From assembly GCA_031400935.1 (NCBI GenBank), contig JANNQV010000025.1, positions 1 to 64,000 of the forward strand: a stretch of 64,000 nt of DNA. Direction: 5' to 3'. Below the pieces are notes generated by a model. That model ran no database searches. It was given only the letters and a program-made list of their open reading frames with translations, and was not told the DNA's origin. Within the stretch, counting starts at the first letter, position 1, and each line of letters starts with the position of its first letter. A program made the position numbers and the translations under genes. The stretch is from Armatimonadota bacterium. Its GTDB lineage: Bacteria; Armatimonadota; Fimbriimonadia; Fimbriimonadales; Fimbriimonadaceae. Positions 742 through 57,829 of this stretch are shown piece by piece.

Positions 742-840
742 CCCCTCACCCTCAGCTTCGCAGGTCCCTCTCCCCCACCAAGCTCCCCGATTTTTCCCTG
801 CGGCGGGGCAGGCGTTCCTCGCTGTGGGGGAGAGGGAACC
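742..840. repeat. C-rich/G-rich inverted repeat (CCTCTCCCCCAC ... GTGGGGGAGAGG); member of the GTGGGGAGAG dispersed motif family
   Basis: 12-bp inverted repeat at 767..778 and 824..835. The same GTGGGGAGAG core recurs at 42077..42090 and 51611..51622. It lies between the glgP stop and the TA operon start. Confidence 0.4.
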
Positions 841-3484: not shown

Positions 3485-3630
3485 AGGAGCGTTGGCAAGT
3501 TGCTTCCAAGTGGTCGGCATGTGGCTAGCATGTTGAAGCCATCGGTAGAGCAACTTGCCAACAACCTGCCTAACACTTGCCAACAACTTGCCGACAACCT
3601 GAAGACCACTTGCAAACAACATGCCGACGA
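3485..3630. repeat. Array of imperfect direct repeats TTGCCAACAAC (x4, spacing 22/11/22 bp) plus an inverted copy, in the divergent glgP/SPFH intergenic region
   Basis: Repeat starts at 3555, 3577, 3588 and 3610. Inverted copy GTTGGCAAGTTGC at 3491..3503 versus GCAACTTGCCAAC at 3550..3562. Confidence 0.5.
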
Positions 3631-22079: not shown

Positions 22080-22084
22080 GGGTC

Positions 22085-22232
22085 ATTGGTTGTAAGTTAT
22101 CGGTTATTAGTTATTAGTTATTAGTTGATGGTTGTTGGTTACAGGTTGTTGTTACGTTTTGATTGATGGATGTATGAGCCTTTCCCTCCGCTAACCGCAA
22201 ACTGCCACCTGCCAAGCAACTGCGGACGCCTG
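22085..22232. repeat. Composite dispersed repeat: (GGTTATTAGTT)n on one side, CCGCTAACCGCAAACTGCCACC on the other
   Basis: Tandem GTTATTAGTT x3 at 22102..22131. Related to ACCAATAACCAAC (42109..42160), the inverted repeats at 57704..57819, and CCGCTAACTGACAACTGCCGCC at 32360..32384. Confidence 0.5.
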
Positions 22233-27406: not shown

Positions 27407-27435
27407 TTCGTATTTGAATTCTGGCAGAACTTGGG

Positions 27436-27466
27436 AAGGGGATGGGGATGGGGATGGGGATGGGTG
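27436..27466. repeat. (GGGGAT)4GGG hexanucleotide tandem repeat (G-quadruplex-capable), 30 to 60 bp upstream of the kinase start
   Basis: Read directly: GGGGATGGGGATGGGGATGGGGATGGG. Confidence 0.7.
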
Positions 27467-27507
27467 CAGGGTATGGAGTCCAGGAAAGAGGATTGAGTCT
27501 TTAACTG

Positions 27508-27585
27508 GGAACCGATAACTGACAACTGAAAACCGATGACTTTGAAACGCGCACCACAAACCCTTAACCCCAAACCCTTCCCCAA
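27508..27585. repeat. G-poor dispersed repeat copy (GAACCGATAACTGACAACTGAAAACCGATGAC ... CAAACCCTTAACCCCAAACCCTTCCCC)
   Basis: Shares the AACTGACAACTG core with 32369..32380 and 42147..42158. Confidence 0.4.
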
Positions 27586-32172: not shown

Positions 32173-32176
32173 TTTA

Positions 32177-32399
32177 GGTAAGCAGTAAGCGGTTGGCGGA
32201 TAGCAGTTGGCGGAGGACAGGATTCGATTGGTGGTCTTTCATACTAAATAATTGAACTTGAAACAAAATTATTACTCAAGAGACCTTCCATCCGCGCTTT
32301 CCAATGATGAAGTTCCATTCCCAACCGCCAACTGCTATCCGCTTACTGCGAACTCCAAACCGCTAACTGACAACTGCCGCCCTAACTCCCCTGCCTGCC
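32177..32399. repeat. Inverted repeats GCGGTTGGCGGATAGCAGTTGGCGG / CCGCCAACTGCTATCCGC flanking about 110 bp, plus a CCGCTAACTGACAACTGCCGCC copy that encodes the last 10 codons and stop of the amidohydrolase
   Basis: Arms at 32189..32213 and 32325..32342. The nt 32363..32395 translate on the minus strand to GRGVRAAVVS-stop. Confidence 0.5.
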
Positions 32400-33814
32400 T
32401 TCACTCCTTCCTTAACTTTTCCTTCAGAAACAGCGACAACACCATTCACCACCACAAACTGAACGCCAACTGATGTTTCTGCAGGCTTGTCAAAAGTGGC
32501 TCTATCCAAGATTGTCTTAGGATCAAAAATAGTCAAATCAGCGTCGCAACCAACTTGAACCCTGCCCTTTTTCTTAAAGGCTGGGCATCTGCGTTCGAAT
32601 CGCTTAGCGGTCTTGAGTGTCATTTTCTCAATGGCTTGATTGAGAGTCAATATGCCGACATCGCGGGAATAGTGCCCTAAAACTCGGCAAAAAGTGCCTG
32701 ATGTGCGCGGATGACCGGCTCCGTCGCGAATCCTTCCATCGCTTCCAACCATTGTGATTGGGCTGGAAGCCGCCGCGCGGACTGCCGCTTCTGGGATGGC
32801 ATGAGCGATGACAAATCCGCCTTCGGCGCGATATTTTTCAAAGGATCCTTTGGTGAGCCGCTCGTGGGTCTTTGCCCATTCCAAGTCTCCATACGTGATT
32901 CCAAATTTCTTTTCCCAGTCTCCAGCAAAGACTTCGCTGGCGATGCCAGTTCCGAAGGCCGTGTAAGGGTAAAAATCGCAGGTTACATCGAATCCGCGTC
33001 TTTGGGCTTTTGCGATGAATTCGAGGGCTTGTGTAGTGCTTGAAAGTGCCATGCTGGGAACGTGGCAAATATGCAGCGGCGCCCCTGTCGCCATCGCCGT
33101 TGCCATCACTTCTTGAAAGCCGACGAGCGCGCTGAAGTCGTCTTCTAGAGTCCCATATCGCGTATGGCAATGGCAGCTTGCTTTGTATTTTGCGGCGACC
33201 TGAAACGCTTCTAGGACCTCCCAACGGGTGGTTGACGGGCGATATTCAAGCCCAAATCCAACACCCAATCCGCCAGCTTTCAGATTTTTCTCAATATGAG
33301 CGCAAATCCTCTTCATTTCTTCAGGGGCGGCTGCCCGGCTGATTTCGTCGTCTTGATCCCTCAGAACCGAGCTTCTGGCGTGCCCGTGTCCGGCGCCCGC
33401 ACCAAAATTGCAAAGTCTTTTGCCAGCGTTTTCCGAATACCACTTGGCTACGTCTTCTGCTCCACCTTCCATCTGAAGGGATGTGGTTACTCCGTCCAGA
33501 ATCTGGAGCCTGTCGTTGGATTCGTCTTGGCCATGGGCGATCGGGTCAATGAATCCGGGCGCAACGACAAACCCTTTGGCGTCAATTTCCTTCTTGCCAC
33601 GAATTGGACTTGAAGTGATGGCCATGATTCGATTTCCGTTAATGGCAACGTTTCGAATGGCATCCGTTTTCGTTTCAGGATCAATGACTCGTCCGTTGTG
33701 AATCACGATGTCATATTGTTTCTGGCCAAAGAATCCAAACGAACTCGAAGGAATGGAAACCGCGCTAACTGTAGTTGCCAGAAAAGTCCTTCGAGTCATG
33801 AGTAACTTTAGCAT
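32363..33814 (-). CDS. Amidohydrolase (N-acyl-D-amino-acid deacylase-like) with a Tat-type signal
   Basis: MTRRTFLATTVSAVSIPSSSFG twin-arginine motif. Metal-dependent hydrolase motifs (PGFIDPIAHG, HCHTR). Confidence 0.75.
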   Translation of the reverse strand: MLKLLMTRRTFLATTVSAVSIPSSSFGFFGQKQYDIVIHNGRVIDPETKTDAIRNVAINGNRIMAITSSPIRGKKEIDAKGFVVAPGFIDPIAHGQDESNDRLQILDGVTTSLQMEGGAEDVAKWYSENAGKRLCNFGAGAGHGHARSSVLRDQDDEISRAAAPEEMKRICAHIEKNLKAGGLGVGFGLEYRPSTTRWEVLEAFQVAAKYKASCHCHTRYGTLEDDFSALVGFQEVMATAMATGAPLHICHVPSMALSSTTQALEFIAKAQRRGFDVTCDFYPYTAFGTGIASEVFAGDWEKKFGITYGDLEWAKTHERLTKGSFEKYRAEGGFVIAHAIPEAAVRAAASSPITMVGSDGRIRDGAGHPRTSGTFCRVLGHYSRDVGILTLNQAIEKMTLKTAKRFERRCPAFKKKGRVQVGCDADLTIFDPKTILDRATFDKPAETSVGVQFVVVNGVVAVSEGKVKEGVKAGRGVRAAVVS

Positions 33815-35615: not shown

Positions 35616-35648
35616 CACCCCCGAAATTGCTTCGGGGGTGCTTTTTTT
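35616..35648 (+). terminator. Rho-independent terminator
   Basis: Perfect 10-bp stem CACCCCCGAA-ATTGC-TTCGGGGGTG followed by TTTTTTT. Confidence 0.7.
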
Positions 35649-35768
35649 GAAAAAAATAAAAAAAATAAAAAAATCCTTTCCTTTTCGAGAAAAGTACTAT
35701 ACAATGTGGAAGCGCTCTCCATTAAGAGCGCCGCATTCGTGGAAACGCGAGTGTTAGGAGGAATCATA

Positions 35769-36902: not shown

Positions 36903-36956
36903 TTCCCTCGTTATCCTAGTTAGTTGCACAGGGGAGTGCAATGTATTTGGGAAGAG

Positions 36957-36995
36957 CTTGGCCTCCACATTTTGGAGGCCAAGTTTTTTTGTTTT
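36957..36995 (+). terminator. Rho-independent terminator
   Basis: CTTGGCCTCCA-CATTT-TGGAGGCCAAG followed by TTTTTTTGTTTTGGTTTTT. Confidence 0.7.
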
Positions 36996-37053
36996 GGTTT
37001 TTGATGTCGCGACCTTCTTCCGAACCCTCGATCCTCAAAGCTCATCTGACTTC

Positions 37054-37189
37054 TCCCTTCCTTTGAAGGAAGGGCTGGGGATGGATGGCGCTAACTTCGA
37101 ACTCATACAGTTCTTCGAGACTAAGTGCCACTGAATGCAACTTGGGAAACACTTGCCATCCACCCTTAATCCCTCCTTCAAAGGAGGGA
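37054..37189. repeat. MITE-like 136-bp palindromic element with about 35-bp imperfect terminal inverted repeats (TCCCTTCCTTTGAAGGAAGGGCTGGGGATGGATGG ... CCATCCACCCTTAATCCCTCCTTCAAAGGAGGGA)
   Basis: The TIRs are read directly, and each TIR is itself a hairpin. A related fragment (CCCCTTCCTCCCTTGGGAGGAAGGGG + CTTTCGAACTC) lies at 48230..48267. Confidence 0.5.
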
Positions 37190-37212
37190 AAAGTCTGCCT
37201 CTCATTCAAGTC

Positions 37213-37989
37213 TCAAAACCGGTGTTTAAGTAGCGTCCAAAACGCTTCTGGGGCGTCGGTCCACCGAATCTTCTTCCCTGCCTCTTTTGAGCGCGGATGG
37301 TATTGAATGGGCAATTCCATGATCTTATGCCCGCCTCGAATTGCCTTTGCGGTAACTTCCGGGCAAAACTCGAACCTCATGCAAGTTAGATTCATCCCTT
37401 GAATCACATCGGTTCGAAACGCCTTGTAGCAAGTGGCTTCGTCCTTTACCCTTCGAAAATAAAGAATCGCAACCGCCCACGAAAGCAGGACGTTGACTAC
37501 TTTGTTGGGCAATGCCATGCCAGCAGGGAAGCCGGAGGAAAACCGATTTCCATAAACGACCGTTGCTTCGCCCTTGAGTATCGGCGCGACAATCACTGGA
37601 ATCTGCTCCGGCGCATATTCCAGATCGGCGTCTTGTACGATGGTTGCTTTGCCATTGCAAAAGGGAAGCGCCTTTCGAATCGCCTCGCCTTTTCCCGTTT
37701 TGCTCTCACATTCAACTAGAACGATGCGCTCACCATAGGTTCGAAGTATCTCGCCGGTTCGATCTGTTGAACCCGCATTGACGACTACGACTTGAGTGGA
37801 AATTGGCAATGCAAGGAGGCGATCAACGACTTCGCCGATCGTTGCCTCTTCGTTATATGCGGGCACGACAATGGAAACATCATGAGACCCTCGATCCTTG
37901 CTCCGCTGTGAGGATCGAGGGATCGGTTGCTGGCTCAAGCGAGCACCATAGCTTCTTTGCCCCGGAAATACTCGCCAAGCCGAAGGCAC
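37213..37989 (-). CDS. Family 2 glycosyltransferase (dolichyl-phosphate mannose synthase-like)
   Basis: VSIVVPAYNEE...DAD GT2-A motifs. The annotated start overlaps the carB-C 3' end by 55 bp, so the true start is uncertain. Confidence 0.7.
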   Translation of the reverse strand: MPSAWRVFPGQRSYGARLSQQPIPRSSQRSKDRGSHDVSIVVPAYNEEATIGEVVDRLLALPISTQVVVVNAGSTDRTGEILRTYGERIVLVECESKTGKGEAIRKALPFCNGKATIVQDADLEYAPEQIPVIVAPILKGEATVVYGNRFSSGFPAGMALPNKVVNVLLSWAVAILYFRRVKDEATCYKAFRTDVIQGMNLTCMRFEFCPEVTAKAIRGGHKIMELPIQYHPRSKEAGKKIRWTDAPEAFWTLLKHRF

Positions 37990-39596
37990 GATGATTTGGA
38001 GGGATCGGCAAATATCTCAAGCGCATCTGCCAAAGCTTCAGCGGTGTCAATGCTTGTTATGCAGGCAACACCGATTTCTATGCAAGCCCTTCGGATTTGA
38101 GCTGCTTCGCGTTCGGCTTGCTTGTGAGTGCTAGGCGAATTGATGAGAATGCTGATTTCGCCTTGCATGATTCTGTCAAGAAGATTCGGCGAGCCTTCGC
38201 TGATTTTCATCACCCAAAGGTTTTCGATTCCAGCTTGTATTAGGGCGTCATGCGTTCCGCCAGTGGCGGCAATTTTGTATCCTTGATTGGCGAATGTTCG
38301 TGCAATCTGGACAGCTTTTTCCTTATCGTCATCTTTCACGGAAATGAGAACGTATCCATCGCCTTTGAACTGAATTCCGCTCGCGATCATGGCCTTGTAC
38401 AAAGCGGCGTTGAAGTGGTGGTCAATCCCCATGATCTCGCCTGTTGATTTCATTTCTGGGCCGAGGCTGGGTTCGACTTTTCGGAGTTTTTGGAAGCTGA
38501 ACACGGGTGCCTTGACTGCGAAGAGTACGGGTTCTGGAAGGACAGCTTTTCGTTCAATGAAATCGCTTTCTGGAACAACATAGCCCTTTGCCGATTCACT
38601 GCTAGAGGGTTCCAAGCACCAAAGTCCGCTTTGATAACTAAGGTCTGTAAGCTCTTCTCCCATCATGCAACGAGTTCCGAGGTCTACCATTGGGATTCCG
38701 GTGACTTTGCTGAGAAAGGGCACGGTCCGACTCGCACGCGGATTGACTTCAAGGACGTAGGCAATCTCGTTTTGAATGACAAATTGGATATTCATTAAGC
38801 CTTTGATCTTCAATGCTCGTGCAATTTTGCAAGCACTTTCAATCATTTGGGATTGAACTTCCAAAGTAAGTCCGACGGCTGGATATACTGCCATCGAATC
38901 GCCGCTATGAACTCCCGCGCGCTCAATGTGCTCCATGATTCCAGGAACTAAGGTTGATTCTCCATCGGAAATCACGTCAACTTCAGCTTCAACCCCTAAG
39001 AGGTATTGGTCAACGAGCACCGGTTGCCCTTCGCTTGCGGATTCAGCTTCTCCATAGAATTCGCGCAATTGCGCTTCGTCGTATACAATTTCCATTGCTC
39101 TTCCGCCCAAAACAAAACTTGGGCGAACGAGAACTGGATAGCCAACGCTGTTAGCGATCTCGACTGCTTGACTTAGGGATCGAACGGCTTTTCCTTTCGG
39201 GCGCGGTACGTTCAATTCTTCGAGCAAAGCGTCGAACTGCTCCCGATCTTCTGCCATAGCTATGGATTTGGGTGAAGTGCCGAGAACTCGAACTCCAGCA
39301 TCTTGGAGCGGCTGAGCTAGGTTAATTGCGGTTTGTCCGCCAAACTGGCAAACGACGCCGATGGGCTTCTCATGATTTACAACCTGAAGAACATCTGGCA
39401 GGGTAACAGGTTCAAAATAAAGCCCGTCAGAGGTGTCGAAGTCTGTTGAAACGGTCTCGGGATTATTGTTAATGACGATCGCGCGATAGCCGATCTTTTC
39501 GAGAGCCCAAACGCAATGGACGCAAGAGTAGTCGAATTCAATACCTTGACCGATTCGAATCGGCCCGGAGCCAAGAACAAGAATCGTATCGGGCAT
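37935..39596 (-). CDS. carB: Carbamoyl-phosphate synthase large subunit, C-terminal half (second ATP-grasp plus MGS-like domain)
   Basis: MPDTILVLGSGPIRIGQGIEFDYS matches the start of the second CarB repeat. C-terminal MGS-like domain (GYKIAATGGTHDAL). Complements the separately encoded N-half at 40483..42030. Confidence 0.8.
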   Translation of the reverse strand: MPDTILVLGSGPIRIGQGIEFDYSCVHCVWALEKIGYRAIVINNNPETVSTDFDTSDGLYFEPVTLPDVLQVVNHEKPIGVVCQFGGQTAINLAQPLQDAGVRVLGTSPKSIAMAEDREQFDALLEELNVPRPKGKAVRSLSQAVEIANSVGYPVLVRPSFVLGGRAMEIVYDEAQLREFYGEAESASEGQPVLVDQYLLGVEAEVDVISDGESTLVPGIMEHIERAGVHSGDSMAVYPAVGLTLEVQSQMIESACKIARALKIKGLMNIQFVIQNEIAYVLEVNPRASRTVPFLSKVTGIPMVDLGTRCMMGEELTDLSYQSGLWCLEPSSSESAKGYVVPESDFIERKAVLPEPVLFAVKAPVFSFQKLRKVEPSLGPEMKSTGEIMGIDHHFNAALYKAMIASGIQFKGDGYVLISVKDDDKEKAVQIARTFANQGYKIAATGGTHDALIQAGIENLWVMKISEGSPNLLDRIMQGEISILINSPSTHKQAEREAAQIRRACIEIGVACITSIDTAEALADALEIFADPSKSSCLRLGEYFRGKEAMVLA

Positions 39597-39749
39597 GCAA
39601 GTCCAATTGTGACTCATGCCTTGCTCGCGACGCTTGGATGGCTTGTATGGATTGTATAGATTCTATGGAGGATGCGGAATGCAGAATGCAGATTTGAAGA
39701 GCTACAAAGTTATGAAGCAAGTACTTAGGCAATTCAATCAAATAGCTGT

Positions 39750-40496
39750 CTAATGAAGCTTGACCAACGGGAAGACTTCGACATCAACGCCCTGACAAAA
39801 GATCACGTGCTCAATCTTTCGGTCTGGTAGCCCAATGGATTGGGCCAAGTCTGTTTCGAACCGCTCTAAGGATACGTTGGCTAGTTGGTATGGCTTGTGA
39901 TGAACTTGGCCCAGCATCATTGTTCCGTTTGAAAGTGTATAGAGTTGATATCTTTCAACGAGCCAAAATTCAAATGTTCCAGGTGCAGCCGAATGGAAAT
40001 CGGTCTCGTGGTCATATTTGAGAGTCATCGAAGCATGAGGTTCGTCGAGCCTTCTAATTCTGTAATCAATCGTTTGGCCGCTCAAATGAACTGCCATATC
40101 TGAATGCAAATAATTTAGCCCGAAGAAGTTTTTGGCATACTCACAAGCCAGCCATCTTGAAGCATCGAGTGAAAAGAACCAAACTCCTGGATCCATGCCG
40201 TTTCGATGTACATAGGTTCTAACATTTGTTTCCGGAAATGCGGATAGCCACGGAATTGCTGGCAACCCAGGATATCGAATGCTGTTCATCGTGAAGGCAA
40301 CTATGCCAATCCAAGCTTGCTCGACTCCATTTGCGTCTGGAAATGTGTCAATTTCAAGCTCAAGTGGAACGTGATTTCTCAGCATATCGGGCGAGACAGG
40401 ATAGTGGAGAAAGCATAAGTCTCGCCAAGATTGCAGCATCACTGGCTTCCCAATTGGCCGTGAACGCATTTGCAGATACTTGCTAATCGGCAGCAT
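39750..40496 (-). CDS. DUF2071 (YqjF-like, acetoacetate-decarboxylase-fold) protein
   Basis: 248 aa with length and motifs ([17 protein letters not shown]) consistent with DUF2071. It lies between the two carB halves and overlaps the carB-N 3' end by 14 bp. Confidence 0.6.
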
Positions 40497-42030
40497 CGTT
40501 TTCTTCGCCTACCGTTGCATAGAAGTAGGGGGTGTGTGACTCAAATTCTGCGGCGCATGTGTCAACCATTTTGTAAACTTGATTGGGCTGATGTTCAATG
40601 AGGGTATTGTGTTCATCATCAATTAGGTTCTGAAGTTTAGATAGGAACCACTTGTCAACTTTGCAAAGTTTGTTTACTTCGTCAATGCTCCAACCTCTCC
40701 GAAGGCCTTCTGCGATTGCCCATAGTCGTTCGTCTGTAGGGATTCTGATGGCACTTCTAAGTGCTTCATCCCGCATGGCCTCGAATTTCTCGTGTCTGAG
40801 GTCCTTCTGCTTCACTTCCAAGCCTCGAATAGCCTTCATCAGCGCAGATTCAAAATTCCTGTCAATCGCCATGACCTCACCAGTTGCCTTCATTTGAGTG
40901 AAGAGAGTGCGATCGCCACCAGAGAATTTGTCAAACGGCCAACGGGGGATTTTCACTACACAGTAGTCAAGCGCAGGTTCAAAACACGCCTTTGTTGTTC
41001 GAGTGACCTCGTTTTCAATCTGGTCTAAGGTCTTACCAACGGCAATTTTTGCGGCTACTCGAGCGATTGGGTAGCCGGTCGCCTTAGAAGCGAGGGCTGA
41101 GGATCTTGAAACTCGCGGATTGACTTCGATAATGTAATAGTCAAAGCTGTCTGGATTCAGGGCCATCTGGACGTTGCAGCCACCTTCAATGCCGAGAGAA
41201 TTGATGATTTTCAATGCGGCGGTTCGCATCATGTGGTATTCAAGATCGCTCAATGTTTGGCTTGGCGCAACAACAATCGAATCTCCTGTGTGAACGCCCA
41301 TGGGGTCGAAATTTTCCATGTTGCAAACGGTTATGCAGTTTCCAGCCGAATCGCGCATCACTTCATATTCAATTTCTTTCCAGCCCAAAAGGCTGCGTTC
41401 CACCATGATTTGGCTCTTCATTGAAAGCTTCAAGCCCTTGCAGCCGATTTCCCAAAGCTCTTCGGGAGAGTAGGCAACACCGCCACCCGTTCCTCCCAAA
41501 GTGTAGGCTGGACGAACGATTCGTGGGTATGCAAACTGGATGGGTCGTCCGCTCTCGCTAGGGACTTCAACAGGCAGAATGGCTCGAAGCTGATCTTCGG
41601 TTTCGACGATAAAGCTCTCAGGAACAGGCTCCTTAATTTCGCGCATGAGAGTTCGAAATTCCTCCCTGTCTTCTGCTTTTCGAATTGCCGAAAGAGGTGT
41701 GCCAAGAACACGTACATTGTTTCTCTCAAGAATTCCAGCATCGGATAGCTGGATCGCCAAATTGAGGCCAGTTTGTCCGCCTAAGGTGGGTAAGAGGGCG
41801 TCTGGCTTCTCCCGAATTATCACCCTTTCACAAAAATCAACGGTCAACGGTTCGATGTAAAGAGCATCCGATACTTCCGGATCGGTCATGATCGTTGCTG
41901 GATTTGAATTGATCAGGACGACTTGATGGCCTTCTTCTCGAAGGCTTTTGCAGGCTTGAGTTCCTGCGTAGTCAAATTCGGCGGCTTGTCCGATTACGAT
42001 GGGTCCCGAACCGATAACAAGCACCTTCAT
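40483..42030 (-). CDS. carB: Carbamoyl-phosphate synthase large subunit, N-terminal half (first ATP-grasp plus oligomerisation domain)
   Basis: [52 protein letters not shown] is the canonical CarB N-terminus. 515 aa. It ends after the oligomerisation domain at its own stop codon. Confidence 0.85.
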
Positions 42031-42053
42031 TCAAAAGCGAATTATATCATTTT

Positions 42054-42160
42054 TGGGGATCGGGAAGTGGAGTGTGGAGAGTGGTGCGTGGGGAGAGGGT
42101 GTACAGCAATCAACCAATAACCAACAACCAATAACCAATAACCAACAACTGACAACCAAG
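42054..42160. repeat. Composite dispersed repeat: G-rich GGGAAGTGGAGTGTGGAGAGTGGTGCGTGGGGAGAGGGTG joined to ACCAATAACCAACAACCAATAACCAATAACCAACAACTGACAACCAAG
   Basis: Read directly. Both halves have relatives elsewhere in the window (51591.., 57761.., 22102.., 32360..). Confidence 0.5.
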
Positions 42161-42167
42161 TACCGAT

Positions 42168-43262
42168 CTACCGTCGCCGCGGGATCATTCTTCTTCCAAA
42201 CATCATTCCACCCTGTTGGAAACTGTCAACACCATCAATCGGCGTCCAAAAAACAGATTGTCGCAAACCTGAGCTTAGGAACAATGCGAGGCGGCCACCG
42301 CCATCAAAATTCACTCGATACACGCCGTAATCATCAATTGAGCCGCTCAAAACCGTAAATGCAACCTGGACTCCAGTATGACTTGGCGATGGGCCGTACT
42401 CATCGCGAGTGTCAGTTGTTAGTCTAGTAGCTGTCGAGCTAGCAATGGCTGGTACGGAATAGATATCGAAGTTTCCATTTCGGTCAGTAGCAAAATAAAT
42501 GGTCGAGCCATCTTTGCTCCATTGCGGATTGATGTCGTCAGCTCCGTTGAGCGTCAAATTTACGAACCCTGTGCCATCCAAGTTCAACAGCCCGATATCT
42601 GCCTTGCCGCCAACAATTCTGGAGATTGCAAGCTTGTCACCTGTTGCGTTTACAAACGCTTCTTCAGCATCGCCGATTCTTAGCAAACCGCTTCCGTTCG
42701 TATTGATCGTGTAGACCCCAAAATCGCCTTCAGTTGCCGAAGCCGTGAAAACAATCTGGCTCCCATTTGGAAGGTATTGAACAGTCCCAACGTAAAGGAA
42801 ATTACTGGTAGTGAGTCGAGACGAACCAGAAATGGTAGGATTTGCGCCCCGGAAAAGGTCATAACGAGGATTTGACAAGCTCGAAGTGTAAAAGAAAGCG
42901 TATTGAGTGACGGGCAAATTTGGAGTCGCAACAGGAATGTTTTGGGTCAAATTGGCGAATGGGGTAACTGATGTTCCATCGGAATTCATGAATTTGACGG
43001 CTGTCCCAGAGCCATTTACGTCGCTAAAGAAGACCTTGTCGTCAGGAAGTGCCGATCCACCACCAGAAGTTGTGGAAGTCGTAGAGGTAGTGGATGTGGT
43101 CGAAGTTGTGGAAGTTGTAGAAGTTGTAGAAGTGGTTGAGTTGGTAGAGGTAGTTCCGGTTGTGCCTCCTCCCCCGCCGCCACATCCAATAAGGATGGCA
43201 AAAAGCAACGCAACGATAAAAGCAATAATTGGGCTGTACGATCGGAACCTGGCGATTTCCAT
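42168..43262 (-). CDS. Lipoprotein with a (TTS)n linker and TolB-like PD40 beta-propeller repeats
   Basis: Lipobox LIGCGGG. TTSTNSTTSTTSTTSTTSTTSTTSTTSTTS linker encoded by a 9-bp tandem repeat (43072..43165). PD40 motifs (DGSTIYFATDRNGNFDIYSV). The track ORF opens at 43316 with a TTG start; the ATG at 43262 is preferred. Confidence 0.6.
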   Translation of the reverse strand: MEIARFRSYSPIIAFIVALLFAILIGCGGGGGGTTGTTSTNSTTSTTSTTSTTSTTSTTSTTSTTSGGGSALPDDKVFFSDVNGSGTAVKFMNSDGTSVTPFANLTQNIPVATPNLPVTQYAFFYTSSLSNPRYDLFRGANPTISGSSRLTTSNFLYVGTVQYLPNGSQIVFTASATEGDFGVYTINTNGSGLLRIGDAEEAFVNATGDKLAISRIVGGKADIGLLNLDGTGFVNLTLNGADDINPQWSKDGSTIYFATDRNGNFDIYSVPAIASSTATRLTTDTRDEYGPSPSHTGVQVAFTVLSGSIDDYGVYRVNFDGGGRLALFLSSGLRQSVFWTPIDGVDSFQQGGMMFGRRMIPRRR

Positions 43263-43342: not shown

Positions 43343-43383
43343 GTAAAAACAGATTCCCCCCAACTTCTACAAGTTGGGGGAAT
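43343..43383 (-). terminator. Rho-independent terminator of the metalloprotease gene
   Basis: Minus-strand hairpin ATTCCCCCAAC-TTGTAGAA-GTTGGGGGGAAT followed by CUGUUUUU. Confidence 0.6.
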
Positions 43384-45943: not shown

Positions 45944-46124
45944 AATTCCTCCTATCTAACCGCCGCCCCGGTGGGCGTCACAGATATAGTCCTATTTTAG
46001 CGGCTAATTAGTTCGGATCGTGTGAGCTTTTTTCAAAATACTAGAATTCTTTGCTGAGAACCTTCAAAACCCGGCAAAATTGCCGACGATACCAATAAGG
46101 CCGCAATGTGCCTTGTTTGAATAT

Positions 46125-48221
46125 ATGAAGCAACTTCAGAATCTTCTCAAGCATACAGATCTGCTCTTTGGAGTGGGACTCGTTGTCGTTGTTGCAATTT
46201 TAATTTTGCCATTGCCCCATTGGGCATTGGACATGGGGCTTGTTGTGGCAATTGCATCGGCTGTCATCATCTTGCTCAGCTCGGTAAACGTGACCGATCC
46301 GCTTCAATTTTCTGTTTTCCCTTCGCTCTTGCTCGTTACGACGCTTTTTCGGCTTGCGTTGAGCATCGCCGCAACGAAACTCATTCTGGGTACTGGCCAA
46401 GCCGGGGCTGTCATCGAAACGTTCGGTAACTTCATCATGGGTGGCGACTTTATCGTCGGCGTTGTGGCGTTTCTGATCCTTGTCATTGTTCAATTTATTG
46501 TAATTACCAATGGTGCTGGACGTGTTTCAGAAGTTGTAGCTCGATTTACCTTAGATGCAATGCCAGGCAAGCAGATGGCGATTGACGCCGACCTTGCCGC
46601 AGGCTCGATTGACGAAGACCAAGCCAAGGAACGTCGAGAAAATGTAAAGCGTGAAGCCGATTTCTATGGTGCGATGGACGGCGCATCCAAATTTGTAAAA
46701 GGCGATGCAATCGCTTCGATTCTAATCATCATTATCAATATCATCGGCGGCTTTGCCGTTGGGTTCATGAAGGGCCAAGGCGACGCCTTGACGATCATGA
46801 AGACTTACACAATTCTAAGCGTCGGCGAAGGACTCGTTTCGCAGCTTCCGGCTTTGCTCATTAGTACCGCGAGCGGTTTGCTTGTCACCCGTTCAGGGCA
46901 ACAAAGAAGCATGGGCGCCGAAGTCATCGGCCAAATGCTAGGCCAGCCTAAAGCACTCACTTATGCTGGCGGAGCGCTCGCAGGAATGTCGCTGGTGCCA
47001 GGATTTCCAACGGTCATCTTTCTCATCGCTGCGGCGGGCTGTTTTGGAATCGGGCAGTTTATGGAGAAAACTCCTGGTGCTCGAAAACTCGTTGGTGCGG
47101 AAACTATGGACGAAAAGAAGGCAGACGCAAAGCTAGTGGAAGCCGCGGCAAAGCAAAGCGTTCCGCAGGGACCGGATTCAGTCTTGCCACTGCTTGCCGT
47201 TGATCCCCTAGAAATCGAAATCGGGCACGGCTTGACCAAACTTGCCGATGCCCGGGTTGGCGGAGATATGTCGGAACGGGTTACCTCAACCCGAAAACAG
47301 ATCGCATTAGAACTCGGGTTCGTAATGCCGACCGTTCGAATTCGCGATTCCATTCATTTGAAGAGTACGGAATACGCGATCAAAGTTCGCGGCGAAGAGG
47401 TTGCAAGGGCTGAAATCATCCCGAATATGCACCTTGCCATCTCTAGCGGGGAAGTGTTTGGCTCGGTTCCAGGAATAACTACAAAAGACCCTGTTTTTGG
47501 ACTCGATGCAATATGGATTGACCCAGCCAACCGAGAAACCGCCGAGCGATCTGGATATTCAGTAATCGAGCCTTCAGCGGTCATTACAACTCATTTAGGA
47601 GAAGTTGCCAAGGCCGCGGCATCCGAATTGCTTACAAGGCAAGACGTTTTCAAGCTCATCGAGAACGCGAAATTGCAAAACGAAAGCGCAGTTACCGAAC
47701 TCATTCCAAATGTTCTCACTGTTGGTGATGTGCAAAAAGTCCTTCAGCACCTTCTTCGAGAGCGAGTTCCGATTCGAGACATGGTCACCATTTTGGAAAC
47801 CATGGCAGACTTTGGCACACGCGTCAAAGACCCAGATCAGCTAGGCGAACTCGTTCGCGCAAACGTCGCCCGAACGATTACGCGCCAATTTGTAGACCCC
47901 ACGAACAAGCTTGCCTGCATCACTCTTGACCCAGCCCTTGAAAGAGATTTGGTTGAAAATGTAAACCTGACGAACTTCGGCTCAATGCTTGTCATCACTC
48001 CAGAGCAACAGCGCGACCTCATGGAATCCATCCGCGCAGAGGTTGACCGCGCCAATGTGCAAGGCTTCCATGCCGTTCTTCTTTGCGGAAACCAGCTTCG
48101 CCTTCCTCTCAAGAGGCTGGTTGAAAAGCAGCTTCCAACCCTGGCAGTCATGGCGTACAACGAAGTGGCAGAAACGGCAGAAGTGGAATTCATAGGGCAG
48201 CTAAAAGCCTTCGCGGCGTAA
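46125..48221 (+). CDS. flhA: Flagellar biosynthesis protein FlhA
   Basis: Canonical FlhA motifs (MPGKQMAIDADLAAGSIDEDQAKERRENVKREADFYGAMDGASKFVKGDAIA). The start is chosen at MKQLQNLL. Confidence 0.9.
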   Translation: MKQLQNLLKHTDLLFGVGLVVVVAILILPLPHWALDMGLVVAIASAVIILLSSVNVTDPLQFSVFPSLLLVTTLFRLALSIAATKLILGTGQAGAVIETFGNFIMGGDFIVGVVAFLILVIVQFIVITNGAGRVSEVVARFTLDAMPGKQMAIDADLAAGSIDEDQAKERRENVKREADFYGAMDGASKFVKGDAIASILIIIINIIGGFAVGFMKGQGDALTIMKTYTILSVGEGLVSQLPALLISTASGLLVTRSGQQRSMGAEVIGQMLGQPKALTYAGGALAGMSLVPGFPTVIFLIAAAGCFGIGQFMEKTPGARKLVGAETMDEKKADAKLVEAAAKQSVPQGPDSVLPLLAVDPLEIEIGHGLTKLADARVGGDMSERVTSTRKQIALELGFVMPTVRIRDSIHLKSTEYAIKVRGEEVARAEIIPNMHLAISSGEVFGSVPGITTKDPVFGLDAIWIDPANRETAERSGYSVIEPSAVITTHLGEVAKAAASELLTRQDVFKLIENAKLQNESAVTELIPNVLTVGDVQKVLQHLLRERVPIRDMVTILETMADFGTRVKDPDQLGELVRANVARTITRQFVDPTNKLACITLDPALERDLVENVNLTNFGSMLVITPEQQRDLMESIRAEVDRANVQGFHAVLLCGNQLRLPLKRLVEKQLPTLAVMAYNEVAETAEVEFIGQLKAFAA

Positions 48222-48229
48222 AGCATTAG

Positions 48230-48266
48230 CCCCTTCCTCCCTTGGGAGGAAGGGGCTTTCGAACTC
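48230..48266. repeat. Palindromic hairpin CCCCTTCCTCCCTTGGGAGGAAGGGG + CTTTCGAACTC between the convergent flhA and BNR genes (related to the 37054..37189 element)
   Basis: Perfect 12-bp stem with a 2-nt loop. Likely a bidirectional terminator or REP-like element. Confidence 0.5.
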
Positions 48267-51002
48267 CTACTGCCTGACTGTAAACAGCACCTGATCAAAC
48301 CGGACTCGCCACTTTGCAATGACATCCGCCGCCCAGGGCTCCGCTGTGACAAGTGCTTTGATTTCCCGGTTCGCTGGCGAGACAAAGCGAGAGGGATCGC
48401 CGGTTGCGACAAATTCAAAGGTCGAATCGGTTGTTGTTGTAGGCCGGAAATCGAGTTCTTCCCACTGGTTGCTATTCCAATTGAACAGCCTTGTCCTTAG
48501 CCCGAGATTGCGCTGCGTGGCATTCACTTCCAGCTTAAATGCAAGATAGCTTACATTGCCATGAGGCGAGACCGATGTGAATTGAACGCCCATCGGAGTC
48601 ACAAGACCAGGAGCAGTGAAATCGCCCAAAATGTCCAGCTTGTCGTTATCGCTGGCATAGAGGCTTGAAAGCCTTCCGCTCATCAAATTGCCCCAAATGA
48701 TGTTGTAGGTTGTCGGCGAAAGCGGCTCGGTTACTGAATCGAGAATATCCGCCGAATAAACACCCCTTCCATGAGTTACCGCAAGGAGCTTCGTTCCGGT
48801 TACCCATCGAAGCTCTTCCACGGGCGCGATTCCAGGGCCGACGTTTTGCGTTGACCAATTTTGCCCGCCGTCGCTGGATGTGAACAATCCAACATCAGTC
48901 CCTACATAAATCCAATTGGAATTGATCGGGTGAGTGGTAACGGCACTGATGGGCGTGCTGGGCAAGTCGCCGCTAATGTCCGTCCAGTTCGTTCCGCCAT
49001 TCGTCGTCATCCAGAGGTTGTTTGATTCGTAACCCATGAATGAAACCAGAATTCGGTTTGTGTTGTTTGGGTCAATTCGAATCGAACCAACCCATCTGGC
49101 AGGCAGTTGGGTTGCTCCGTTGTCAACTCGTGTCCAAGTCGGCGTTACCGCCGCTCCGTTGATTGTTTTCCAAACTTCGCCGTTGTTGTATCCAACCCAA
49201 ATCAAGTTGCTGTTGCTTTGTGCGATTGTAAAGGTCGAGATATTCCAAGGCGGGTTTGTAGCAAAATGCGCCTCATCGTTCTTGGAGCGGCCATTTGGCC
49301 TTCCTCCTGGCTGAATCGTCGGCTTGATAGCGGTCCAAGTGGGCGTTCCAGCTTTGATGTTATTGGATCGCCAAAGGCTTCTTGCACCAACGAGCATTCG
49401 GTTCGCATTACTTGGATCAAGGCCAAAGTAAGCGATGAAGTTGCAAGTTGTGGAGCTTCCCGCGTCAGTAATTCCGCTGTAGCAATAGTTGTAGCTACCG
49501 CCAGCACCGCCTGTTGTGCTTCTTACGATCTGGGCGTAATAGATTCCGGCATACCAATAGTTAACATCTGTAGGATCGTATTCGCAATAGACGCCATCGC
49601 CGCCGAAGACCGTTCCCCAATCTTGAGGAAGACCTGTGTAGCGAATCGTTCCGTTATCTTGCAATCCAGCTATCATGTTGCCATTGGCGGGATTCATTAC
49701 GGCGCCATAAACCTGTGCAATCCCGAGATTGTGGTTCAGGTTGTTTACCGGATTTAGTGTGTGATCGTTAGAACGATAGATGCCTCCATCGCAACCCACA
49801 AAAATGCGGCGATTGGTTGTTCCATTAAAGTTCGGATCGGATACGATGGCATGCATGTCGGCATGAACCCCGTTGAGCCCTTGTGTAAAAGTTGCACCGG
49901 CATTTGCACTTCTGTACAAGTAGACGCCGCCTAAAATTAGATTGTTTGCGTTTGCAGGATCAACCCAAAGCACATTGTTATAGGCTGCATAGGTGCTGAT
50001 TCCCCCACCAGTAGTTGTAAGTGTGAAAGTTGAGCCGCCATTCACCGAACGGTAAATTTTGATCGCGCTGCCTACACTTGCAGCACAATAGACCGTGTTT
50101 GGGTTGCTCGGTGCATAACGAACTTCAGAGCGATGGGGATTGGGGAGACCCGTCGCTGCAGTCCAGCTTAAACCGCCGTTGATGGAAACTTTCACGCCGT
50201 CATCGTGGAAACCTGAAATTACTTTTTGTCCATCAGTAGGATGAAACTGGACGTCGTAAGCAAGTCCCAACGAAGTTCTAACCCAAGTCGTGCCTCCATC
50301 GGTGGATCGCCAAACTCCTGATCCTGTCGCCGCCAGCATGTTTTGAGAATTCGTCGGCGAAATCGCAATGCGGTTTACAAAATACCAATCTGGCGTATTC
50401 GTAAAGGCAATTTGGCTCCAAGAAGTTCCGCCATCGGTGGATTTGAAGATTCCGGCACCTCGAACGGCCGCCGTGTTTGATGTTCCTTCGACAGTTTCAA
50501 AGAAGCCTTCTCCCGTGCCGGCAAAAAGGGTGTTTGGATTCGTTTGATCAAGTGCCATGCAGCCGATTGGCATAACTGGCATGAAATCGTCCATTGGCAA
50601 CCACGAAACGCCTGCATCAATGGTTTTCCATATACCACCGCTAAGCCCGCCCGTCCACATGATGTTTGTGTTCGTTGGGTGGATCAGAATGCTTCGAACT
50701 CGTCCGCCCAAATTGCCGGGACCATGCCATGTCCAACCGCCTGGAAAAACGCCCGCTCCATCAGAAGGGTCTACGATAAGATCTCGTTGAGAAATGGCTA
50801 ATGCAATAGCTCCGTCGGGGACCTTGCCGTTTTCTGACATTCGCTTATCAGATCGAAAATTCGCCGCTGCTACTGGACTGTCGAAATCGGATTCAGCTTC
50901 AGTAATTTGCCTAGGTTCCATGGAAGAGCAGACAATCAAAATGCCGATACCAAATACGAAGTAAGACCAAGCCACCACATTCAATTTCATTGTTGTCACC
51001 AA
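48267..51002 (-). CDS. Secreted BNR/Asp-box repeat protein (sortilin/VPS10- or GH74-like beta-propellers) with a C-terminal module distantly resembling the 8227..9279 and 34040..35590 family
   Basis: At least six S-x-D-G-G-x-T-W-type repeats (STDGGTSW, STDGGTTW, SINGGLSW, SVNGGSTF, SSDGGQNW, TTNGGTNW). N-terminal signal/TM segment. Confidence 0.65.
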   Translation of the reverse strand: MVTTMKLNVVAWSYFVFGIGILIVCSSMEPRQITEAESDFDSPVAAANFRSDKRMSENGKVPDGAIALAISQRDLIVDPSDGAGVFPGGWTWHGPGNLGGRVRSILIHPTNTNIMWTGGLSGGIWKTIDAGVSWLPMDDFMPVMPIGCMALDQTNPNTLFAGTGEGFFETVEGTSNTAAVRGAGIFKSTDGGTSWSQIAFTNTPDWYFVNRIAISPTNSQNMLAATGSGVWRSTDGGTTWVRTSLGLAYDVQFHPTDGQKVISGFHDDGVKVSINGGLSWTAATGLPNPHRSEVRYAPSNPNTVYCAASVGSAIKIYRSVNGGSTFTLTTTGGGISTYAAYNNVLWVDPANANNLILGGVYLYRSANAGATFTQGLNGVHADMHAIVSDPNFNGTTNRRIFVGCDGGIYRSNDHTLNPVNNLNHNLGIAQVYGAVMNPANGNMIAGLQDNGTIRYTGLPQDWGTVFGGDGVYCEYDPTDVNYWYAGIYYAQIVRSTTGGAGGSYNYCYSGITDAGSSTTCNFIAYFGLDPSNANRMLVGARSLWRSNNIKAGTPTWTAIKPTIQPGGRPNGRSKNDEAHFATNPPWNISTFTIAQSNSNLIWVGYNNGEVWKTINGAAVTPTWTRVDNGATQLPARWVGSIRIDPNNTNRILVSFMGYESNNLWMTTNGGTNWTDISGDLPSTPISAVTTHPINSNWIYVGTDVGLFTSSDGGQNWSTQNVGPGIAPVEELRWVTGTKLLAVTHGRGVYSADILDSVTEPLSPTTYNIIWGNLMSGRLSSLYASDNDKLDILGDFTAPGLVTPMGVQFTSVSPHGNVSYLAFKLEVNATQRNLGLRTRLFNWNSNQWEELDFRPTTTTDSTFEFVATGDPSRFVSPANREIKALVTAEPWAADVIAKWRVRFDQVLFTVRQ

Positions 51003-51077
51003 TTTGTGTTTGACTGTACTTTAGCATGAGACGACCAGAAATCGTTATGTTGTTTTAGCAAAACTAGCAATTTTCAA

Positions 51078-51590
51078 TTGCTTGGATCGCGTATCCTACT
51101 TGGAATGATTGAAAGGGCCGATCAATTTAGGATTGAAGCAAGGACCGACCTTATGGCAGTTGAAATCCTCTTCAGAGAATACGCAGCAGAGCTAGACATA
51201 GATTTTTGCTTCCAAGGATTTGAGGCAGAAATTTCGTCGTTGCCAGGAAAATACGCAGTTCCGATGGGTGCAATTTTGCTCGCGACTGATGCGAGTTCTG
51301 GAAGAGAAGCAGGCATTGTCGCGCTTCGTCCTTTTGGCGATTCTGGTCAATGCGAGATGAAGCGAATGTATGTTCGCCCGGAGTTTAGAGGAAAAGGCCT
51401 AGGACGAATGCTTGCTGTCGAAATAATTGCTGTGGCTTCACAGGCAGGATATACTGAAATGCTGTTGGATACGCTTCATAAACTTCAACCTGCGATAAAG
51501 CTTTACAAGGACCTGGGCTTCGAGGAAATTGAAGCGTATTATGACAATCCGATTGAAGGAGTGGTCTATTTGAGGAAGATGATCCTATAG
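51078..51590 (+). CDS. GNAT family N-acetyltransferase
   Basis: Acetyl-CoA binding motif (RMYVRPEFRGKGLGRML). Confidence 0.75.
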   Translation: MLGSRILLGMIERADQFRIEARTDLMAVEILFREYAAELDIDFCFQGFEAEISSLPGKYAVPMGAILLATDASSGREAGIVALRPFGDSGQCEMKRMYVRPEFRGKGLGRMLAVEIIAVASQAGYTEMLLDTLHKLQPAIKLYKDLGFEEIEAYYDNPIEGVVYLRKMIL

Positions 51591-51658
51591 TGATGAGTGG
51601 GGAATGGAGAGTGGGGAGAACAGATTCAATTCAATCTATACATCCAACTCATCCGACG
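51591..51658. repeat. Dispersed repeat copy with imperfect termini GATGAGTGGGGAATG ... CATCCAACTCATC (GTGGGGAGAG core); its right end encodes the RimM C-terminus (SSDELDV-stop)
   Basis: Read directly. Same GGATGAGTTGG core as 54684..54700. Confidence 0.45.
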
Positions 51659-54599: not shown

Positions 54600-54725
54600 T
54601 GATGCTATTGATCTGGGTGAGAGAAATGAACTGGGTGACTTGGGTGCCCGGAAGGGTTTGTCAGCTTCTCGGAATTCACTCATTTCACCCAACTCATCCA
54701 ATTCAGCCGCATCACCCAATTCACG
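54600..54725. repeat. Imperfect inverted repeats CTGGGTGAGAGAAATGAACTGGGTGACTTGGGTG / CACCCAACTCATCCAATTCAGCCGCATCACCCAA in the divergent ffh/BNR promoter region
   Basis: Read directly. Shares GGATGAGTTGG with 51641..51658. Confidence 0.45.
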
Positions 54726-57692: not shown

Positions 57693-57821
57693 TTGTTCGG
57701 GTTTGTTGTTAGTTATTGGTAATTAGTTGTTGAATTGGAAGTGCAACGAACCGCGAGCTGCTAACAACCAATAACTAACAGCGAATAACTAACAACCAAT
57801 AACCAAGAACCAATAACTATA
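57693..57821. repeat. Long imperfect inverted repeat (GTTTGTTGTTAGTTATTGGTAATTAGTTGTTG ... CTAACAACCAATAACTAACAGCGAATAACTAACAACCAATAACCAAGAACCAATAACTA) between convergent genes
   Basis: The arms are reverse-complementary (TTGTTAGTTATTGGT / ACCAATAACTAACAA). Member of the ACCAATAAC family. Probably a bidirectional terminator. Confidence 0.55.
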
Positions 57822-57829
57822 TTCCGCTC

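Follow-up and report, generated by a model that had tools for sequence, protein, structure and literature searches.

Introduction

Short tandem repeats with a unit of seven nucleotides (nt) are the closest described counterparts of the sequences reported here, which are degenerate heptamer arrays in a 64,000-nt stretch of Armatimonadota DNA (positions 1 to 64,000 of contig JANNQV010000025.1, hereafter the window). In cyanobacteria, such heptamers were reportedly described by Mazel et al. in 1990 as short tandemly repeated repetitive (STRR) sequences. The unit is CCCCAGT in STRR1, TTGGTCA in STRR2 and CAACAGT in STRR3. Rehm et al. (2015) described heptameric simple sequence repeats (SSRs) with the units GGGAATC in Xanthomonas and GGGGA(T/C)T in Nostoc PCC 7120, of which 89-93% are intergenic (PMC4692102). 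The G-rich strand of these repeats is the sense strand within 50 bp past a stop codon, which is sometimes overlapped; in the 50 bp that precede a start codon it is the antisense strand. Each Xanthomonas genome holds 70-75 inverted pairs. Position is kept across species and length and sequence vary. These SSRs are mostly transcribed, transcripts start or end at the G-quadruplex (G4) type repeats oftener than at controls, and repeat-bearing loci in Xanthomonas are more stable than controls (PMC4692102). MacGregor (2015) described TAACTGA repeats just upstream of Shine-Dalgarno-poor starts in marine Beggiatoaceae, some Cyanobacteria and Bacteroidetes, with strain differences in 7-nt steps; the Beggiatoa genome has 169 direct sets and one inverted set (PMC4679880). 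As relayed in that paper, Mrazek (2007) reported that among long SSRs a unit of seven is the most frequent, and ascribed such heptamers to polymerase slippage. In Nostoc 7120, GAC(C/T)AAT is repeated eight times upstream of recO, overlaps the recO start and has regulatory effects (bioRxiv 10.1101/2022.06.06.494920).

We interpret the arrays of the window, with a probability of about 0.8, as heptanucleotide SSRs akin to the Xanthomonas and Nostoc SSRs, the STRRs and the TAACTGA repeats, in a Fimbriimonadia-like member of the Armatimonadota. Like the Xanthomonas and Nostoc SSRs, they are degenerate tandem heptamers in intergenic DNA which follow the same orientation rule, form inverted pairs and combine conserved position with variable length. 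However, most units of the window (AAYAACC/GGTTRTT and GCNAACY) have no G3 tracts and form no quadruplex, the units are more degenerate, the phylum is a different one, and arrays with periods of 6, 9 and 11 nt also occur. The G3 tracts (four or more) define the G4 subclass and not heptameric SSRs generally. All of the structural properties that were measured have been described before, and therefore each has a precedent. What differs is the phylum, which is new, the dominant AACY/GGTTRTT units without quadruplex potential, the strong degeneracy and the mixture of 6-, 9- and 11-nt periods. Our literature search found no paper that links Armatimonadota with heptamer repeats.

A sequence-only reading of the window had listed eight of these sites as related copies of one strand-asymmetric, lineage-specific repeat family which resembles mobile elements and can remodel gene ends. 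Unusual sequence is present at all eight sites, and further sites were found at 3490-3629, 27427-27471, 37056-37188 and 39634-39692. Our analysis indicates a different relation among the sites and a different relation to the genes beside them.

Period-7 signal and unit composition

Periodicity was scored as the number of 35-nt segments with at least 70% self-match at a given lag, with 100 dinucleotide-preserving shuffles as the control. In the 64-kb window, lag 7 gave 80 segments, against a shuffle mean of 0.03 (maximum 3), and lag 14 was likewise high; no other non-coding period came near these two. Periods of 5, 8, 10 and 13 gave 0-1 segments each. Periods of 6, 9, 11 and 12 gave 18-58 segments, in part due to in-frame coding repeats. 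The pattern AACY-N3-AACY-N3-AACY, in phase and with at most one mismatch, was matched 33 times against 2.3 expected (maximum 8), and intergenic DNA in five places (22.1, 27.5, 32.2-32.4, 42.1 and 57.7-57.8 kb) accounts for 30 of the 33 matches. Of the four motifs that had been proposed for the repeat family, ACCAATAACCAAC and TAACTGACAACTG belong to this one robust family. The other two were not borne out, since GTGGGGAGAG has 4 matches against 2.7 expected, which is no excess, and GGATGAGTTGG has 4 against 1.2, which is borderline.

The 56 units pooled from eight arrays give the consensus [A/G][A/C][C/T]AAC[C/T], in which 48-53 of the 56 units keep the AAC core and the remaining positions (1-3 and 7) are roughly two-fold degenerate. 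A second unit type consists of G-rich heptamers (TGGRGAG/GGGATG), and hexamer, 9-mer and 11-mer arrays (periods 6, 9 and 11) are also present among the sites. Degeneracy is strong: the window contains a single exact threefold heptamer, AGTTATT at 22103, and few exact twofold ones.

The curated sites total 1,364 nt and range from 59 to 227 nt in length. All of the clear arrays sit between open reading frames (ORFs) or within over-extended 5' ends of ORFs, and they reach up to stop and start codons; two weak period-7 matches inside coding DNA (7451 and 46218) look like chance. The ORF called at 41999-42358 is spurious, as had been proposed, and translates an array (...QQSTNNQQPITNNQQLTT...). Over 47830-60196, which includes three sites, the window has exactly the sequence of an independent Logan assembly of run SRR20217205, and therefore the arrays are not assembly artefacts.

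Little sequence is shared between sites. In an all-against-all blastn comparison of 11 sites, the longest cross-site alignments were 35-41 nt and confined to the arrays. Shared 12-mers within the window numbered 489 against about 370 in shuffles, a modest excess, and beyond the array sites they were chance-like. The flagged sites are locally generated, degenerate heptanucleotide tandem arrays and not copies of one dispersed element.

Orientation of the arrays relative to genes

The orientation of every period-7 array in the window and its relatives was scored against the nearest ORF end. The strand asymmetry noted in the sequence-only reading was evident, with G+T fractions of the arrays ranging from 0.14 to 0.86. 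Among stop-proximal arrays, 13 were G/T-rich on the sense strand, none was A/C-rich and 3 were neutral, and most lay within 16 nt of the stop codon; with both arms of one hairpin counted once, the count was 12:0. Background flanks after stop codons were symmetric, with 42 G/T-rich and 41 A/C-rich among 217. Start-proximal arrays were A/C-rich in 7 cases and G/T-rich in 4, and some of these 4 were mis-assigned to over-extended ORFs. In addition, nine of the ten paired or double sites of the window have a G/T-rich 5' arm and an A/C-rich 3' arm, on either strand, the exception being 742-840.

Three candidate readings were rejected. As a cause of this polarity, transcription-associated mutation bias fits the convergent sites and predicts the opposite at divergent ones, and the divergent sites at 3.5, 22.1, 27.5 and 54.6 kb still run from G/T to A/C. 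Rho-utilisation (rut) sites would be poorly matched, as the RNA after the stop is G/U-rich and C-poor, the opposite of a rut site. Consensus scans for sigma-70 promoters and intrinsic terminators showed no enrichment and no matches at the arrays. A count of keto-skew pairs across the relatives (8:0) was set aside because several of its matches lay within coding DNA.

Folding of the arrays

Folds were scored as z against shuffled sequence, and paired values refer to the + and - strands. In the first of two classes, an array is followed by its own reverse complement, and the two form a long imperfect hairpin (100-230 nt) which folds far better than shuffles. Here z was -5.7 (+) and -4.2 (-) at 57693-57825, -4.2/-3.8 at 54595-54730, -3.7 at 3485-3632 and -3.3 (-80.3 kcal/mol) at 32170-32405; a non-periodic hairpin at 37050-37195, grouped with these, gave z -7.1. 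In the second class, unpaired strand-asymmetric arrays fold worse than shuffles, with z of +1.7 at 42050-42165, +2.4 at 22085-22232 and +1.6 at 27500-27590. Folds were weak at 51585-51665 (z -0.3/-1.7) and 742-842 (z -1.4). Inverted pairs of arrays occur in the window at 32.2, 57.7, 3.5 and 54.6 kb and also in the relatives L082, L205 and L015. The arms of the 32.2 kb pair differ by exactly one 7-nt unit.

The long hairpins attributed to the eight sites were thus found at 57693-57825, where they lie between convergent genes, at 54595-54730 and at 32170-32405; they were not found at 42054-42160, 22085-22232 or 27500-27590. The eight sites also do not form a single class, as 742-840 is a non-periodic stem, 51585-51665 folds weakly and 54600-54725 has a period of 9. 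By G4 regular expression, only 27433-27471 (+), 27561-27583 (-) and positions 11436-11459 of L082 are quadruplex-capable, and the AACY/GGTTRTT arrays have no such capacity.

Arrays in related genomes

Under the strict threshold, the Armatimonadota relatives (371 kb) carried 2.2 period-7 arrays per 100 kb, and the 982 kb from other phyla that the same query had retrieved carried 0.2 per 100 kb. The matches found in other phyla under a looser threshold were mostly low-complexity AT-rich sequence and not real heptamer arrays. The spread is patchy: arrays are present in L015, L007, L003, L006, L013, L002, L082 and L205, and many other relatives, including the 67%-identity relative L083/L084, had no arrays in the DNA examined. 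Preferred units vary by genome, being GTAAATC and GCAATCG in L015, TGATGAG in L007, GGTTGTT in L002 and GGGTTTA in L082. Contrary to the sequence-only reading, the repeats are not strictly lineage-specific. More than 120 unrelated metagenome contigs carry AACCAAY arrays, none of 120 being a close relative of the window, and the class is known in other phyla (PMC4692102, PMC4679880).

Several sites could be compared at orthologous positions. In the convergent spacer between dtd and the Sortilin-like gene, the window and L205 have 84% column identity and a conserved loop; L205 lacks 28 nt (4 x 7) of the 57756..57822 arm and has 7 nt more in the other arm, and its hairpin folds with z of -4.5/-4.7. 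In the amidohydrolase-to-HD spacer, an inverted heptamer pair abuts both stop and start in the window and in L082 (about 89% protein identity). The units of this pair differ, being of the GCAGTTG/GCGGATA type in the window and of the GGGTTTA/GGGTATG type in L082, where z is -2.9. In the PD40-to-carB spacer, the 107-nt double array of the window is absent from L082, and just the promoter-like upstream box (AAAATGATATAMT...TTTTGAATG) near the carB start is conserved. At 39.6 kb, L082 has kept part of the array, with another number of units. These orthologous sites have gained and lost whole units and turn over fast, and the inverted layout has been kept. The 7- and 28-nt indels and swapped heptamers at orthologous sites point to slippage and turnover and not to the insertion of mobile copies.

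Two further observations were made in the relatives. L082 (11433-11467 and 11542-11589) and the window (27552-27585) both have arrays of the GGGTTTA/CCCTAAA type, at loci that do not correspond; this heptamer is the plant-type telomere repeat and is quadruplex-capable. The L002 contig, 1.5 kb long, ends inside a GGTTGTT array (1447-1479), 16 nt past the rimM stop.

Gene ends adjoining the arrays

The sequence-only reading had proposed that the repeats supply the last codons of two genes. For the amidohydrolase this was not supported by orthologs, since 30 of them share the tail G(K/R)x(L/V/M)R(A/G), also written G[KR]xxRA-AVVS, and the 89% relative L082 ends in the same AAVVS despite a different downstream array. 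The heptamer phase of the GCNAACY arm at this site extends through the final four codons and the stop (32363-32365) into the spacer, which fits the known habit of these arrays, which often reach or overlap a stop codon. This suggests that the array adjoins the end of the gene or was seeded there. For RimM, an extension by the repeat was likewise not upheld: the protein, with its GESSDELDV tail, has 171 amino acids (aa), within the 163-181 aa of its relatives (195 aa in a distant homolog). In each of the RimM relatives the C-terminus is a short acidic tail, and its sequence varies (for example GEDLDT, EEVLDE, DELETNEP). The last few rimM codons, judged from this comparison, could still have been replaced. 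At the 54.6 kb site the ffh ORF is over-extended through the site, and a gene call of 429 aa leaves 54600..54725 outside the gene.

Individual array sites

Each site is given with its strand; periods are from Tandem Repeats Finder (TRF). Two arrays lie side by side in the PD40-to-carB spacer and do not pair with each other (fold z +1.7). The first, at 42054..42101 (+), has seven G-rich heptamers (TGGGGAT, CGGGAAG, TGGAGTG, TGGAGAG, TGGTGCG, TGGGGAG, AGGGTGT), is C-rich on the sense (-) strand and ends 24 nt before the start of the carB N-half at 42030. The second, at 42103..42160 (+), has eight AAYAACC units (TRF period 7/14/21, 85-95% matches; AACY matches at 42112-42164), reads GGTTRTT on the sense (-) strand and begins 8 nt past the stop of the PD40-repeat gene (42168).

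At 22081..22150 (-), about ten AAYAACY units adjoin the ATG of the ORF 21715-22086 (-) and include the exact threefold AGTTATT (on +). At 22183..22220 (+), four to five GCNAACY units lie upstream of the metallophosphoesterase gene (22298+). A GGGATG/GGGGATG x5 array at 27427..27471 (+; TRF period 6, 96% matches; G4-capable by regular expression) is on the antisense strand of a likely Ser/Thr kinase gene, about 30 nt upstream of its start (ATG 27397, -). It is followed at 27500..27585 (+) by two A/C-rich arrays, GANAACY x6 (with TAACTGACAACTGA) and then CCCNNAA x5, which end 24 nt upstream of the start at 27609 (+); the CCCNNAA x5 array is G4-capable on the - strand.

The inverted pair at 32.2 kb consists of an arm at 32174..32215 (-), with the units GCCAACT, GCTATCC, GCCAACC, GCTTACT and GCTTACC, which stops 5 nt before the start of the HD-domain gene (32172), and a partner arm at 32317..32380 (+), with GCNAACY x8 on + and G/T-rich sequence on the sense - strand. 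The hairpin at 57.7 kb lies between convergent genes. Its arm at 57697..57735 (-) is G/T-rich on + and begins 8-11 nt past the stop of the Sortilin/BNR-repeat gene (57689), and its AAYAACY x9 arm at 57756..57822 (+; TRF period 14, 4.2 copies) ends 8 nt before the dtd stop (57830, -).

Period-11 arrays form the hairpin at 3490..3629 (+), between divergent genes, with a G/T-rich arm at 3490-3535 and a CAACTTGCCAA-type arm at 3551-3629 (TRF 11/33). The hairpin at 54600..54725 (+) lies between the divergent ffh (called start about 54533) and 54759 (+) genes; its left arm is G/T-rich (CTGGGTG...) and its right arm (54683-54725) is of the TCACCCAAC type, with a TRF period of 9 and not 7. At 51591..51658 (+), a short G-rich array (TGATGAG, TGGGGAA, TGGAGAG, TGGGGAG; 51591-51620) directly follows the stop of the GNAT gene, and a 14-nt partial complement of it lies in the final rimM codons, with weak structure. 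The site at 39634..39692 (+) is a 9-mer array (TTGTATGGA x4, 39634-39669) followed by a GAATGCA heptamer array; both are A/C-rich on the sense (-) strand and lie 17 nt upstream of the start of the carB C-half (39617).

Two sites are not periodic. The long imperfect hairpin at 37056..37188 (+), with a G-rich and then a C-rich arm, lies between convergent genes, and because it is non-periodic its relation to the arrays is uncertain. The G/C-rich stem at 742..840 (-; GGTCCCTCTCCCCCAC / GTGGGGGAGAGGGAACC), past the stop of the glucan phosphorylase gene, is the sole site with C-rich-first polarity and is probably outside the heptamer class.

Host and gene surroundings

The genes of the window are housekeeping genes, including ffh-rpsP-khpA-rimM, guaA, grpE, dtd, a split carB, flagellar fliD and flhA, and glucan phosphorylase. 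Relatives of RimM, the amidohydrolase and Dtd are found in metagenome-assembled genomes (MAGs) of Fimbriimonadaceae, Fimbriimonadales and other Armatimonadota, the nearest (about 88%) being 'Armatimonadota bacterium SOY_40_concoct_342' (JANNJE01). Judged from these protein matches, the host is a Fimbriimonadia-like Armatimonadota MAG. A cyanobacterial origin was ruled out by the taxonomy of the relatives, by the single HIP1 site (GCGATCGC) in 64 kb and by the lack of tandem STRR units. No transposase and no REP-associated tyrosine transposase (RAYT, where REP is repetitive extragenic palindromic) was found among 48 ORFs of the 64-kb window scanned against Pfam. With Rfam 15 at the gathering score, the sole match in the window was a tRNA-Arg (23217-23292), and no RNA family matched at the arrays.

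Many starts have no Shine-Dalgarno (SD) sequence and have instead a GATATA/TGATATAAT/TATCAT-like (TATAAT-like) box 5-15 nt before the ATG. Examples are 42036-42050 (-) for carB, 54744-54749 (+) for the 54759 gene, about 54538-54545 (-) for ffh, about 58430-58440 (+) for an S9 peptidase and 53060-53075 (-) for rpsP. This placement suggests that leaderless or very-short-leader mRNAs may be common in the Fimbriimonadia-like lineage.

Several genes of the window are unusual in themselves. carB is split into an N-half of 515 aa (40483-42030) and a C-half of 560 aa (37935-39617) with a DUF2071 gene between them (39750-40496); the split and the intervening DUF2071 gene are also found in L082 (2834-7508), with an extra 203-aa ORF there. 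The flagellar genes fliD and flhA (FHIPEP) lie at 19393-21672 and 46080-48221. Dtd (D-Tyr-tRNA deacylase, 57830-58378) has 182 aa instead of the usual 145, because about 37 aa of low-complexity sequence are inserted in frame (about 58040-58170), and the insert DNA holds a 23-nt inverted repeat (58066-58088 / 58124-58146, 87% complementary). Dtd lengths in relatives are 145-183 aa, and the 88%-type relative has 158 aa with a shorter, different insert; the variable insert length therefore marks a fast-changing region within a conserved enzyme.

In-frame repeats also occur in other proteins. Ribosomal protein S16 (52403-53047) was called at 214 aa with the S16 domain at residues 8-66 only, and its long C-terminal extension contains in-frame 12/24-nt tandem repeats (52542-52624). 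The Thr/Ser-rich N-terminal linker of the PD40-repeat protein contains in-frame 9/18/36-nt repeats (43065-43143), which are present at another length in L082 (about 1650-1800). Among the spacers, the convergent one at 10360-10477 contains G+C-rich palindromes (GACTTGCCCGTCCCGGGCAAGT; GGGCGGAACGCCC; GTGGCTCG...CGAGCCAC) unrelated to the heptamer arrays, and the GTGGCTCG word is found again in the dtd insert. At 35616-35673, a canonical intrinsic terminator (CACCCCCGAAATTGCTTCGGGGGTG and a T-run) is directly followed by a (AAAAAAATA)x2.7 tract.

Comparison with other repeat classes

The arrays resemble the TAACTGA repeats in being intergenic heptamers mixed with others, in part just upstream of SD-less starts, with indels in 7-nt steps. 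Unlike in Beggiatoa, half of the arrays here are in inverted pairs and many follow stop codons. TAACTGA itself occurs in the window as 7 single copies with no tandem pair, and TAACTGA/CAACTGA (near-variant TAACTGACAACTG) occurs at 27516 and 32364. The forward orientation a few nt upstream of an SD-less start holds at 32174-32215, 22081-22150 and 27500-27585 and fails at 32317-32380, 42103-42160 and 57.7 kb. The arrays resemble the STRRs and the Nostoc heptamers in that lineage-typical sets of tandem units lie near promoters and starts, and GACCAAT is close to AACCAAT. However, the host is not cyanobacterial, and no tandem pair of STRR1-3 units was found on either strand of the window.

Similarity to intrinsic terminators is limited to the presence of stem-loops just past stops, as the stems of the arrays are long and imperfect, contain A/T and have no U-tract. 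The arrays share an intergenic location, hairpin capacity and a frequent place between convergent genes with REP elements, their hairpin-forming doublets (REPINs), bacterial interspersed mosaic elements (BIMEs) and MITEs, which are miniature transposable elements with inverted repeats. Unlike REP elements and MITEs, which have a defined consensus and termini and are mobilised by RAYTs or insertion sequences, the sites here share a 7-nt grammar only and gain and lose units. Phase-variation SSRs were also rejected as a comparison, because the arrays are degenerate (one exact threefold unit) and their neighbours are housekeeping genes.

Discussion

The simplest cause of the arrays would be slipped-strand mispairing in a 7-nt register, by which they would arise and be resized. 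Quasipalindrome template switching can keep the arms of a hairpin complementary, and in the present arrays complementarity may be kept by such switching, by selection on the fold, or by both. Where they are transcribed, paired arrays could form stem-loops without a U-tract which mark the ends of transcripts or protect them and insulate the genes on either side, and unpaired A/C-rich arrays could provide structure-free sequence before SD-less starts. This proposal for function, with inverted pairs as 3'-end or intercistronic stem-loops and A/C-rich arrays as open leaders, is tentative, and we give it about a one in three chance.

Several observations weigh against the interpretation as slippage-derived SSRs with such a function. 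First, the high degeneracy, with one exact threefold unit only, means that slippage must currently be slow, and the contrast between conserved and variable unit positions is not expected from simple decay. Secondly, the arms at 57.7 kb are unequal (8 against about 5 units) with the surplus units unpaired, which argues against tight selection on the fold. Third, no U-tract is present at any hairpin and the terminator scan gave no match at the arrays; canonical intrinsic terminators lie elsewhere in the window (35616-35640, 36950-36990 and 43355-43382), and thus the arrays are not needed for termination. Fourth, because a TATAAT-like box lies 5-15 nt upstream of several starts, an adjacent array may be upstream of the promoter and outside the mRNA. 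In addition, the AACCAAY arrays of unrelated metagenome contigs have an orientation trend of the same sign that is weak and does not reach significance when strictly counted (16:11 and 15:8). Lastly, the analysis covered 64 kb of the genome.

The arrays could instead be neutral, that is, slippage products without function whose orientation bias comes from mutation or repair asymmetry or from a filter against harmful orientations. Fast turnover in close relatives, with the 42.1 kb arrays absent from L082, would be expected of such sequences, as would the unequal hairpin arms, the unit types that vary among genomes, the relatives without arrays and the independent canonical terminators. However, neutrality does not readily account for a stop-proximal orientation of 13:0 on a symmetric background, nor for the inverted layout of the amidohydrolase-to-HD pair, which was kept while its units changed fully. 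The hairpin is also conserved in L205, the AAC core is common to independent arrays, and the stability of repeat-bearing loci in Xanthomonas (PMC4692102) points the same way. We regard neutrality as possible though doubtful.

A binding-site explanation would have each 7-nt unit read on RNA by an OB-fold protein (cold-shock protein or S1), which controls translation or hairpin melting. A 7-nt period cannot hold one face of duplex DNA, which would favour single-strand recognition; positions 4-6 (AAC) are conserved and positions 1-3 and 7 vary two-fold; A/C-rich arrays lie just upstream of SD-less starts; and the same proposal has been made for TAACTGA (PMC4679880) and the Nostoc heptamers (bioRxiv 10.1101/2022.06.06.494920). 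However, no candidate protein was identified, units differ widely among related genomes and within the window, half of the AACY arms are not beside any start codon, and the lack of SD sequences is general in the genome and not specific to array-bearing genes. This explanation is unlikely. A broader form of it, which we consider slightly less probable again, is that the arrays are a lineage-wide intergenic punctuation on single-stranded RNA, in which each unit would be read by a protein with a 7-nt footprint. G/U-rich arrays would stand within about 15 nt past stops and A/C-rich arrays before SD-less, possibly leaderless, starts, and pairing between arrays would act as a switch that makes the spacer either an insulating hairpin or an open leader.

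The weakest explanation is the one put forward in the sequence-only reading, a REP/REPIN- or MITE-like mobile family spread by transposition and replacing gene 3' ends: the arrays are over-represented and intergenic, have the place and shape of REP elements with long imperfect hairpins, repeat one heptamer at several loci per genome (GTAAATC at at least 4 in L015, AAYAACY at at least 3 in the window) and include CCCTAAA/CCCCAAA-type units at different loci in the window and L082, but such a family is very improbable, as the sites lack a consensus of element length and have neither termini nor spacers in common, no terminal inverted repeats or target site duplications are visible, the 64-kb window encodes neither a transposase nor a RAYT, orthologous sites differ by whole-unit indels, and the supposedly repeat-encoded C-termini are conserved in orthologs.

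As heptanucleotide SSRs, the arrays have practical consequences. They yield spurious ORFs (41999-42358), over-extended gene starts (ffh and the kinase) and apparently broken short-read assemblies, and they probably fragment short-read assemblies of Armatimonadota MAGs. For these reasons, the arrays should be masked when Armatimonadota MAGs are annotated. The arrays do not represent a new kind of element. They add a fourth phylum, and a poorly studied one, to those with heptameric intergenic repeats, with the same orientation rule and the same habit of forming inverted pairs. If the punctuation proposal were true, the rule that an array adjoins the ORF lying 5' of its G/T-rich strand, as seen in Gammaproteobacteria, Cyanobacteria and Armatimonadota, would be one conserved mechanism and not slippage noise. 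That the rule holds in Armatimonadota strengthens the case for a general property in need of a mechanism.

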